IMG/VR virus record: IMGVR_UViG_3300045988_082835
Origin: a virus
Reading direction: 5' to 3' (one strand)
DNA: 64,000 nucleotides
Positions 48,238 to 49,219 of this stretch are shown in pieces. Within the stretch, counting starts at the first letter, position 1. Each line of letters opens with the position of its first letter. The translations under genes and the position numbers were made by a program. The notes below the pieces were generated by a model. The model was not told where the DNA came from, did not search any database, and saw only the letters and a program-made list of their open reading frames with translations.

Positions 48238-48355
48238 GAATATGCCGAAGATACTTTCATCCGTCGGGGAAGAAGAAGAGAAAGGTGAGAAGCGCAACTC
48301 AGCATAAAAATGTGCATTATCCCGGAGTGGTGGAATTGGCAGACACAGGGGACTT

Positions 48356-49144
48356 TGATGTATTCTATCCACGTAAAATATGGATACTACTATGCAATAA
48401 TAGTAGAGAGTGCCTAAGAGGAAACTCTTAGAGTAGAGGCTGGCTAAAACGGCGAAGGCGAATACAGAACGCCGTGCTAAGTTTCTTTGGGCAGACTCAT
48501 TTAAGTGGAATACACTATTTTTCATATATAATGAAAGGTGGTAGACTTAAATGAGAAAATATGATAAAGAGTGGCTTCAAGAATTATGTTCTTCAAGTTA
48601 TTCTTATGCGGAAGTTTTAATTAAAGCTGGTCGTAAGATTGGCGGAGGCGCGCAACAAACCTTAAAAAAGAAGATTGTTGAGTATGGAATTGATGTTTCA
48701 CACTTCACAGGGTAGAGATGGTATGATGCTCCAGGGAAAGAGTGTAATTTAAAGGGGCAAGATAGAGAAAAATATTCTCTGAACGAAGTTTTTGTGAAAG
48801 ATAGTCCAGTTACTCAAAAGGTTCTTAGAGGTTATGTTGAAAGGCACAATGTTTTAGAATATAAGTGTCAACAATGCGGATGTGACGGTCATTGGCAAGA
48901 TGGAATAATTGCCTTAGAAATTGACCATATAGATGGAGATAACACCAATAATGAAAAAACTAATCTTCGCTATTTATGTCCAAATTGTCATGCTTTAACA
49001 GAAACTTACCGAGGAAGAAACAAAGCCCTAAAGAATAAATGTGTAGAGAGTATACACCAGCTACCTAAGTCTGAATAAGATATGGTAAAGACGTACTCCA
49101 GACTACAACACAGAAATGTGGCTATGGTGACATAGAGTAGTAAG
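48356..49144 (+). mobile_element. group-I-type intron in tRNA-Leu(UAA) at the classical cyanobacterial/plastid position, carrying an HNH ORF
   Basis: insertion site U34|A35; CAGACTA (P7-like) and AAGATAGTCC (S-like) elements; multiple hairpins. Confidence 0.55.
48551..49078 (+). CDS. HNH homing endonuclease (intron-encoded), one in-frame TAG
   Basis: IALEIDHIDGDNTNNEKTNLRYLCPNCHA; RBS AAAGGTGG. Confidence 0.65.
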
Positions 49145-49219
49145 AAAATCCCCTGGGAGCAATCTCGTACGGGTTCGAGTCCCGTCTCCGGGACCACTAA
49201 TAATACCATAGTAGAATAT

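Follow-up and report, generated by a model that had tools for sequence, protein, structure and literature searches.

What separates the two halves of a leucine transfer RNA (tRNA) gene that lie 789 nucleotides (nt) apart in the virus record IMGVR_UViG_3300045988_082835 of IMG/VR? The question concerns tRNA-Leu(UAA), whose halves could be divided by a splicing intron, by the decayed remnant of one, or by an endonuclease gene that has settled in the anticodon loop. Analysis of the record as one stretch of 64,000 nt (hereafter the window) leads us to regard the insert, with a probability of about 0.86, as a compact IC3-like group I intron of the tRNA-Leu(UAA) family known from cyanobacteria and plastids, for which a splicing-and-homing mechanism is proposed below. 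The window is a phage-like segment (38.5% GC, proteins matching PHROG families), and its tRNA array comprises 29 tRNA genes at 37.5-56 kb, plus a transfer-messenger RNA (tmRNA), a ROOL RNA and a suppressor tRNA(CUA). The split gene is the sole Leu(UAA) copy among the 29 tRNAs.

Exons and insertion site

The gene consists of the following parts.

48321..48355 (+): 5' exon of tRNA-Leu(UAA), positions 1-34, 35 nt with U34 at its 3' end (...GGGGACUU); called by ARAGORN and the same as the 5' part of the gene in sister contigs L001, L002 and L004
48356..49144 (+): group I intron, 789 nt, exactly the segment absent from the sister phages, with a core supported by covariation
49145..49196 (+): 3' exon of tRNA-Leu(UAA), from A35 to the encoded CCA, 52 nt, beginning AAAAUCCCC; supported by ARAGORN and the sister phages

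After joining, the exons form an 87-nt class II tRNA, which is called tRNA-Leu(taa) by ARAGORN, and once introns are allowed the program recovers this gene and places a 789-nt intron behind position 35. In the three sister contigs, whose upstream flank matches the window at 94-95% identity, tRNA-Leu(UAA) is uninterrupted and agrees with the joined exons at 87 of 87 positions (an empty site). A first reading made from the letters alone (the sequence-only reading) had proposed that the two exons reconstitute a perfect class II tRNA-Leu(UAA), which is confirmed by ARAGORN and by this intron-less sister gene. The alignment between the window and the sister contigs stops at 48355 and restarts at 49145, with no gap on the sister side. 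Because the junction bases (T/T...G/A, slashes marking the splice points) permit no second register, the insert sits between U34 and A35, the insertion site of the tRNA-Leu(UAA) 34/35 intron class, as both the empty-site alleles and ARAGORN indicate. The same reading had placed the interruption where the cyanobacterial and plastid intron lies, and this holds on the evidence of the empty-site allele and of the profile homology to the Nostoc intron given below; it had also correctly named the terminal bases, which are U48355 for exon 1 and G49144 for the insert.

Intron fold and covariation

The fold was analyzed in an alignment of 37 sequences, made of 36 short introns without an open reading frame (ORF) and the window copy with its ORF excised, on which a scheme of P1, P2, P3, P4, P5, the P7 pseudoknot, P8, P9/P9a/P9b and the anticodon stem was placed. 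The elements of the window copy are given here together with their support in this alignment and, where it is informative, in the 256-nt ORF-less copy of contig L007.

48352..48355 (+): 5' strand of P1, exon ACUU, with U48355 as the 5' splice-site U; pairs with GAGU at 48408-48411
48366..48406 (+): expanded L1, made of two hairpins, UAUCCA/UGGAUA and CUACUAU/AUAGUAG, that separate the 5' splice site from the guide; read from the sequence
48408..48411 (+): internal guide sequence GAGU (3' strand of P1); G48408 pairs with U48355, and GAG is invariant
48414..48431 (+): P2 hairpin CUAAGAG-GAAA-CUCUUAG with its GAAA tetraloop at 48421-48424; two-sided changes in 7 of 7 pairs
48439..48443 (+): 5' strand of P3, GCUGG, pairing with CCAGC at 49057-49061; 100% of cells paired, double changes in 3 of 5 pairs
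48449..48475 (+): P4, ACGGCG/CGCCGU, enclosing a 15-nt unpaired stretch; 98.6% of cells paired, an A-U/U-A swap compensated
48482..48492 (+): 5' strand of P6, UUUCUUUGGGC; 10-bp duplex with 49025-49035 (-13.2 kcal/mol), replaced by a short AT hairpin in L007
49025..49035 (+): 3' strand of P6, GCCCUAAAGAA; duplex with the 5' strand of P6
49037..49047 (+): J6/7, AAAUGUGUAGA, part of the R element; invariant TGTGTAGAGA block, aligned in L007 to the Rfam R region
49048..49053 (+): 5' strand of P7, GAGUAU; paired in 100% of cells, with compensated changes from CG to GC in 7 sequences and from UA to CG in 4
49057..49061 (+): 3' strand of P3, CCAGC; preceded by a J7/3 of 3 nt (49054-49056)
49062..49087 (+): P8 hairpin with the 11-nt tetraloop-receptor motif CCUAAG...UAUGG; double changes in 3 of 4 pairs of proximal P8
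49088..49092 (+): J8/7, AAGAC, part of the S element; conserved, and aligned in L007 to the Rfam S region
49093..49098 (+): 3' strand of P7, GUACUC, pairing with 49048-49053
49102..49141 (+): P9 three-way junction of P9 (ACUAC/GUAGU), P9a (CACA-GAAA-UGUG) and P9b (CUAUG-GUGA-CAUAG); 89-94% paired, double changes in 11 of 14 pairs
49144 (+): omega G, the last base of the intron; conserved as G in all 89 family members delimited among the matches listed

P6 was excluded from the covariation count because MAFFT leaves its variable stem out of register. The count thus covered 58 pairs in 12 helices (2014 cells), and the 3' partners slid by 1-3 columns served as controls. Standard pairs were found in 92.9% of the 2014 cells (35-40% in the slid controls), changes on both sides in 39 of the 58 pairs (15-23 in the slid controls), and the covariation score of 0.438 (0.07-0.09 in the slid controls) was reached by none of 500 shuffles. 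P3, P7 and proximal P8 are paired in all 37 sequences, the P1-P9 structure with the P3/P7 pseudoknot of group I introns is present, and the window copy retains every invariant core position of the family.

The C-G, U-A and U.G pairs of P1 are invariant in 36-37 of the 37 sequences; the U.G wobble at the splice site, U48355.G48408 in the window, is UG in 36 and CG in one, the Leu(CAA) copy, where C-G replaces U.G. In P7, three compensated states occur (GACUAU/AUAGUC, GAGUAU/GUACUC and GAGCAU/GUGCUC), and the second, carried by the window, is a compensated variant of the usual first. The pair G49048-C49098 and its A-U neighbour are conserved without exception in the 37 sequences and form the predicted guanosine-binding place of group I introns. 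The P2 loop is GAAA in 36 of the 37 sequences and the CCUAAG...UAUGG receptor is found in P8 of 26; the lone sequence with GCGA in this loop is also without the receptor. Compared with its compact relatives, the window copy has a 52-nt L1 with two hairpins, a 15-nt unpaired P5 stretch and an ORF that runs into the core. The L1 interval measures 4-10 nt in compact relatives and holds an endonuclease gene in certain others, and the stretch inside P4 forms a 4-bp P5 in relatives and is unpaired in the sub-group of the window.

Two strings that the sequence-only reading had taken for core motifs lie elsewhere. CAGACTA, at 49099-49105, takes in the linker from P7 to P9 along with the 5' strand of P9, and AAGATAGTCC, at 48798-48807, is coding sequence inside the ORF, missing from ORF-less relatives such as L007. 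The actual R element is GUGUAGAGAGUAUAC (~49041-49055) and the actual S element is AAGACGUACUCC (49088-49099). A further candidate for P7, CAGACUC at 48492 with UAGUC inside the ORF, was dropped since both strings fall within the insert that ORF-less relatives show to be dispensable.

Homology to known introns

The Rfam Intron_gpI search suggested by the sequence-only reading returned nothing for the window. Likewise, no Rfam group I match was found in 31.7 kb of loci with short introns (E<=0.01), or at the gathering score in 9 further loci with compact copies. On L007, Intron_gpI (RF00028) aligned over its full length (1-253) with 25.5 bits (cut-off 50; E=1.3e-4), a match obtained solely by limiting the search to 381 nt around the copy; a 2020 preprint likewise used 18 bits or more for tRNA introns. 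The R element of the model fell on GUGUAGAGAGUAUAC and the S element on AAGACGUACUCC, in agreement with the placement based on covariation.

Homology to a reference intron of the 34/35 class was found with a profile hidden Markov model of the 37-sequence alignment (nhmmer), which matched the pre-tRNA-Leu of Nostoc PCC 7120 over profile positions 3-240 of 241 (E=9e-10) and gave no match among 20 shuffles. This Nostoc pre-tRNA-Leu(UAA) was spliced in vitro as a positive control in PMC13011429. The profile also matched a tRNA-Asp 35/36 intron of Patescibacteria over the core (E=2.7e-19), with the UAAAUGUGUAGAGACUAUAUACC core in common, and for the same genome a self-spliced tRNA-Asp intron is described (PMC13011429). 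The label IC3-like describes the architecture (P2 present, no P5abc, no P7.1/P7.2, J7/3 of 3 nt, P5 region of 15 nt), and the core is also common to the Patescibacteria 35/36 introns, a class mostly labelled IA (PMC13011429). The identification of a group I intron in tRNA-Leu(UAA), already made from the letters, is upheld by the empty-site allele, the covariation over 37 relatives and the profile homology to Nostoc.

The same evidence bears on the idea that the insert is no ribozyme and that a free-standing HNH gene, comparable to the seg genes of the T4 tRNA clusters, came to lie in the anticodon loop by chance. Endonuclease genes of this kind do occur nearby, for example the PD-(D/E)XK ORF at 49286-49690. 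However, about 260 nt of non-coding sequence around the ORF show conservation and the covariation expected of P1-P9, the site is also filled by ORF-less versions of 202-376 nt, and the profile matches the Nostoc intron, so that the idea is already contradicted and its probability is close to nil.

Relatives and their distribution

A 23-mer from the 3' end of the intron was found in 14 IMG/VR contigs, always followed by G/AAAAUCC and the 3' half of the tRNA, with intron lengths of 256-896 nt. The 256-nt copy of L007 lacks an ORF and has a short AT-rich hairpin at the place of the ORF in the window, by which the core parts of the intron can be recognised. A degenerate core 18-mer was found at 120 or more viral loci and at least 120 genome loci. 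As the genome collection comprises 596 Gb, matches there include chance ones by estimate, and therefore only loci with a downstream S-like element were used. The counts that follow hold among the matches listed. An S-like element lies downstream of the core at 101 loci, 89 of which could be delimited as split tRNA-Leu genes (80 UAA, 5 CAA, 4 UAG); the delimited introns end in G in all 89 cases, the omega G, and have U at position -1 in 84. The lengths are bimodal (202-376 and 661-1087 nt), and in this biased sample the long forms account for 42 of 59 viral (~70%) and 9 of 29 genome contigs (~30%), with endonuclease cargo in about 70% of the viral and about 30% of the genome-derived copies. Related introns are thus present in at least 59 viral contigs, with HNH, HNH_3 or LAGLIDADG cargo at three positions. 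A blastn search of GenBank phages with the locus and ORF-less cores returned only HNH-gene matches or two weak unannotated ones.

These relatives also bear on whether the tRNA-Leu is dead, that is, whether the intron has decayed and a pseudogene locus is kept solely by a self-propagating endonuclease gene. We infer splicing, and the window copy goes undetected by Rfam, both of which leave room for such decay. Against it, the exons match the intact sister-phage gene at every position, the changes in the core are compensatory and not random, the gene is the only one for Leu(UAA) in the array of a 38.5% GC genome, and the same arrangement recurs in dozens of contigs with differing exon sequences; a dead gene is thus very improbable.

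The family extends to other tRNAs. In L277 (NC_055898.1, crAssphage cr115_1), an unannotated tRNA at 1353-1653 with the loop CUCU/AAC (anticodon CUA) is split by a 228-nt family intron, and the same suppressor-CUA arrangement with a 359-nt intron is found in L044. L278 (LR745208.1, a 485-kb uncultured phage) has a 210-nt group I intron at 34/35 of tRNA-Ile(UAU) (1345-1631), with a match to the family profile at E=2.5e-13; the deposited record is unannotated. The same HNH family occurs in the tRNA-Leu(UAG) intron of L029, L045, L096 and L125, with TGA where homologues have Trp, and the intron family is therefore also present in TGA-recoded phages. The tRNA-Leu(CAA) copies (L087, L108, L126, L019 and L118) have C at the 5' splice site and a C-G pair for the U.G of P1; they match the 'Leu.3Cg' class, whose splicing was flagged as untested in the 2020 preprint.

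Mobility and cargo exchange

Filled and empty sites coexist in near-identical phages, the latter being those of L001, L002 and L004. Presence and absence of the intron is accompanied by a block of identity in its flank. The window and L003 are identical over tRNA and intron (876/876) and nearly so over the next 500 nt (480/481), beyond which identity falls to 78-85%; this block is consistent with co-conversion of the flank, as judged from the alignments. L008 provides the contrast, with exons 81% and the 789-nt intron 98% identical to those of the window.

The core is 93-97% identical between ORF-less and ORF-bearing versions, and the cargo differs in kind and place. The same HNH family is found in the P6 or the P1 loop, and the HNH_3 type in the P1 loop. 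In the 896-nt intron of L014, otherwise near-identical, both cargo and insertion point differ: a LAGLIDADG_2 gene (E=1.7e-30) lies between P7 and P3', closed by its own AT-rich stem. Judging from these comparisons, the intron is evidently mobile.

L262 is 96% identical to the window upstream of the gene and has a different, intron-less tRNA-Leu(UAA) there (5543-5630). This difference suggests a cassette exchange of the tRNA gene itself.

The HNH endonuclease gene and its TAG codon

Three features concern the cargo and its decoding.

48551..49078 (+): HNH homing-endonuclease ORF in the P6 loop, 175 codons with one in-frame TAG; supported by translation, Pfam HNH and PHROG 10822
48713..48715 (+): in-frame TAG, codon 55, read as sense; aligned to Gln codons of L019 and L143
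54919..54993 (+): suppressor tRNA(CUA), needed to read the HNH ORF past its TAG; called by ARAGORN, Rfam tRNA 61.6 bits

The ORF lies between the strands of P6, i.e. in a peripheral loop, as is found for homing endonucleases. It matches Pfam HNH (PF01844) with 23.0 bits (cut-off 21.4) and PHROG 10822 'HNH endonuclease' over residues 2-164, TAG included (E=2.5e-49). The HNH motif with flanking Cys pairs, CxxC...DHxDG...N...CPNCH, is conserved in the alignment of homologues. A likely ribosome-binding site, GGUGG, is located at 48537-48541, 9 nt upstream of the ATG. Homologues in other introns are 52-73% identical, and both halves of the ORF align to single uninterrupted proteins, such as the TAG-free one of L019 (65% identity over 162 residues). 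These full-length uninterrupted HNH homologues substantiate the sequence-only description of the cargo as an HNH endonuclease gene interrupted by TAG.

The TAG falls in a conserved SHFTGQxW motif, where the TAG-free ORFs of L019 and L143 have true Gln codons, and the phage encodes a tRNA(CUA); TAG at a conserved sense position and a cognate tRNA thus mark the gene as recoded. By this alignment the codon is probably read as Gln. The tRNA(CUA) carries G73 and leaves position 1.72 unpaired, features that fit Gln identity without proving it. Overall similarity of the suppressor to the other tRNAs of the phage was uninformative as to its identity (0.67-0.70 to many).

As a separate observation, the final 8 kb of the window (56000-64000) has ~90% long-ORF coverage in the standard code, and in the rest of the window a marked rise in coverage is seen only when TAG is taken as sense (from 42% to 72% over 0-37 kb). 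This suggests that code use differs between genome regions.

Evidence against the intron reading, and possible protein-assisted splicing

Several points weigh against this account. In the sub-group of the window, P5 is replaced by 15 unpaired nt (helix 6 of the alignment, 68.8% paired), P1 has just 3-4 pairs, and L1 is unusually long. Rfam group I models gave no match in the whole window at the gathering score or in 48000-49400 at E<=10, and none of the family members tried reached the 50-bit cut-off of Intron_gpI. The last ~55 nt of the ORF cross P6', J6/7, P7, P3' and P8, with the stop in L8, and because the end of the ORF overlaps P6', P7, P3' and P8, translation and folding must compete. 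Given the loss of P5, the short P1 with its long L1 and the overlap with the ORF, splicing could be inefficient or protein-dependent. As for the recoding, the amino acid at the TAG is deduced from one aligned position and suggestive features of the tRNA. Furthermore, long-ORF coverage of the whole window rises from 41% to 67% with TAG as sense and up to 68.5% in the TAA control; this test is weak because the control rises as much, and the alignment of homologues was used instead.

Some of these points would fit a group I intron by descent whose splicing depends on a protein helper. The helper could be the HNH protein, in the role of a maturase, or an RNA chaperone from host or phage. The degenerate P5 of the sub-group, the very short P1 with a 52-nt L1, the overlap of the ORF with the core and the low Rfam score even in ORF-less relatives are all in line with such help. 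However, the window copy keeps every invariant core position, with the pairs of P3, P4, P7 and P8 all intact. ORF-less relatives with a reduced P5 (L007, L013 and L205) persist in intact tRNA genes, and the HNH protein is therefore not an obligatory cis-encoded cofactor. The related Nostoc intron and the tRNA-Asn/Asp introns of Patescibacteria, moreover, self-splice in vitro (PMC13011429). Dependence on a protein is on balance unlikely.

Proposed mechanism

We infer the catalysis, the specificity of the enzyme and the timing of expression as follows. The array would first be transcribed and the intron would adopt the fold described above, in which exon ACUU is paired with guide GAGU through the U48355.G48408 wobble and P3/P7 make up the pseudoknotted core; P2 probably reaches the CCUAAG/UAUGG receptor of P8 with its GAAA loop and docks there. 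A free guanosine would then attack after U34, G49144 would enter the P7 pocket, and exon ligation would yield a mature tRNA-Leu(UAA) with its encoded CCA. In a third step, the TAG of the HNH gene in the P6 loop would be decoded by the suppressor tRNA(CUA) of the phage itself. With this one TAG to be read through, production of the enzyme is probably confined to times at which tRNA(CUA) is present; a parallel idea on timing was proposed for a TGA-recoded intron endonuclease of Agate phages. Finally, the enzyme may cut intron-less tRNA-Leu alleles of co-infecting relatives, and repair would copy the intron and flanking DNA into the cut alleles, which amounts to homing.

Neighbouring features of the tRNA array

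Upstream of the split gene, 47254-47849 (+) is a ROOL RNA (350 bits) inside a 625-nt segment (47241-47865) that is missing from L001, L002, L004 and L268 and present in L262, so that within the array ROOL acts like a presence/absence cassette. The gene at 48116-48235 (+) resembles a tRNA (Rfam tRNA 50.9 bits), yields no clean anticodon, and has a conserved insert of ~45-55 nt in the anticodon arm. The insert consists of a hairpin (GGUCUU-GUCA-AAGACC), then RYRACAGCAA and ~20 nt more, which is too small for a group I intron; its homologues were found in a few close relatives only (L001/L002, L262, L008/L251 and L250), with differing acceptor stems.

Downstream, a 134-codon ORF at 49286-49690 (+), with two in-frame TAGs, encodes a PD-(D/E)XK endonuclease (PF11645, E=8.8e-15). 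It starts 90 nt after tRNA-Leu, within a 444-nt insertion (49259-49702) that is missing in L001, L002 and L004 and present in L003, and looks like a second, free-standing homing-type gene beside tRNA-Leu. PF11645 has been reported in cyanobacterial tRNA-fMet introns (PMC13011429).

In some relatives the split gene is followed by other RNAs. A tmRNA comes directly after it in L033, and in L013 the next feature downstream is a RAGATH-33 RNA at 1029-1157, whose 126.8 bits exceed the gathering score; a sequence similar to RAGATH-33 follows tRNA-Leu in L009, L010, L011, L015 and L016 and is absent from the window. The phage tmRNA of the window is at 44377-44707 (+) within the array (Rfam 71.6 bits), and the tRNA-Ile(UAU) call at 37581-37675 (+), 95 nt, has a long, mostly unpaired extra arm that is unusual for class I.

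Directly after the tRNA/ROOL/tmRNA region are two protein genes. The upstream one, at 56015-57538 (+), encodes 507 aa with DUF2828 and DUF7788 (PHROG 850 'RNA-binding protein', 2e-117), and the other, at 57919-60342 (+), encodes an 807-aa protein with Major Vault Protein domains (MVP_shoulder 8.8e-16, Vault_3 2.5e-8) and no PHROG match.

Significance

A long-standing debate concerns the tRNA-Leu(UAA) intron, which is seen either as ancient and immobile or as spread by horizontal transfer. The window intron joins the known tRNA-Leu(UAA) 34/35 family, and its host context, a recoded phage tRNA array, appears undescribed. With its empty sites, its identity block compatible with co-conversion and its interchangeable endonuclease cassettes, the mobility of the intron becomes directly testable. 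There is also a practical consequence. Default ARAGORN and the curated Rfam thresholds miss the gene, so that the phage seems to lack tRNA-Leu(UAA) and 0.9 kb seem to hold an orphan HNH gene; deposited genomes are affected too, as crAssphage cr115_1 and LR745208.1 carry unannotated split tRNAs.

A broader proposal, which we advance tentatively and with more doubt than conviction, is that phage tRNA arrays are a large overlooked reservoir and vehicle of anticodon-loop group I introns that seeds bacterial copies, and that recoding ties homing to late infection. If so, the actively homing forms, with endonuclease genes, would be found mainly in phages, including in Leu(UAG), Leu(CAA), Ile(UAU) and amber-suppressor tRNA(CUA) genes. 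The mostly ORF-less copies in Clostridia, Bacteroidales and perhaps other bacteria would have been seeded by phage forms, and TAG or TGA in the endonuclease gene would link homing to the late, suppressor-dependent phase. Such a route would explain in concrete terms why the 'ancient' tRNA-Leu intron is patchily distributed.

Comparison with known systems

The window intron shares with the cyanobacterial and plastid tRNA-Leu(UAA) intron the U34/A35 site, U at -1, the 3' G, the order of helices, the core strings GAGCYAAG...GUGYAGAGA...AAAGA, and the lack of P5abc and P7.1/P7.2. The cyanobacterial and plastid introns listed in PMC13011429 measure 237-302 nt and have no ORF, whereas the window copy has an HNH gene in P6. 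Further differences of the window copy are the 52-nt two-hairpin L1, the unpaired P5, the three-way P9, its location in a phage and a P7 of GAGUAU/GUACUC.

Like the window intron, the IC3 intron of Azoarcus tRNA-Ile(CAU) combines a compact core with a GAAA loop on P2, a P8 receptor of the CCUAAG/UAUGG type and a P9 capped by a GNRA loop. It differs from the window intron in its tRNA and site, in having no ORF and in its place on a bacterial chromosome. The intron in the DNA polymerase gene of Bacillus phage SPO1, with I-HmuI, similarly combines a phage self-splicing intron with an HNH homing enzyme; at the protein level the similarity is marginal (a weak match of PDB 1U3E to the HNH motif region, E=0.08). 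Phage HNH group I introns such as that of SPO1 lie in protein genes, whereas the window's lies in a tRNA. These phage HNH introns belong to subgroup IA2.

According to a 2014 review, the phage introns known at that time all interrupted protein-coding genes, although phages have many tRNA genes, and a study of crAss-like phages reported introns only in protein genes. PMC13011429 and the 2020 preprint describe hundreds to thousands of bacterial tRNA group I introns, including tRNA-Leu 34/35 introns and the C(-1) Leu variant, in surveys that do not extend to phages; our full-text literature searches found no report of a group I intron in a phage tRNA. One HNH-bearing tRNA-Leu(UAA) intron is catalogued for Bacteroidota in these bacterial surveys (PMC13011429 and the 2020 preprint), and has the same tRNA, site and endonuclease superfamily as the window intron. 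Copies from Paludibacteraceae/Bacteroidales metagenome-assembled genomes, found in our genome scan among the matches listed, encode an HNH protein 35-37% identical to that of the window; in the retrieved bacterial copies the ORF is TAG-free and located in the P1 loop, whereas that of the window is in P6. The Patescibacteria tRNA-Asp and tRNA-Asn introns, which self-splice in vitro, are in other tRNAs and one position further 3' (35/36), and most 35/36 introns are classed as IA (PMC13011429).

The Synechocystis tRNA-fMet intron with I-Ssp6803I (PF11645) is likewise a group I intron in a tRNA anticodon loop that carries a homing endonuclease. In the window, by contrast, PF11645 is encoded by a free-standing gene that lies outside the intron, and the intron has an HNH gene as its own cargo.

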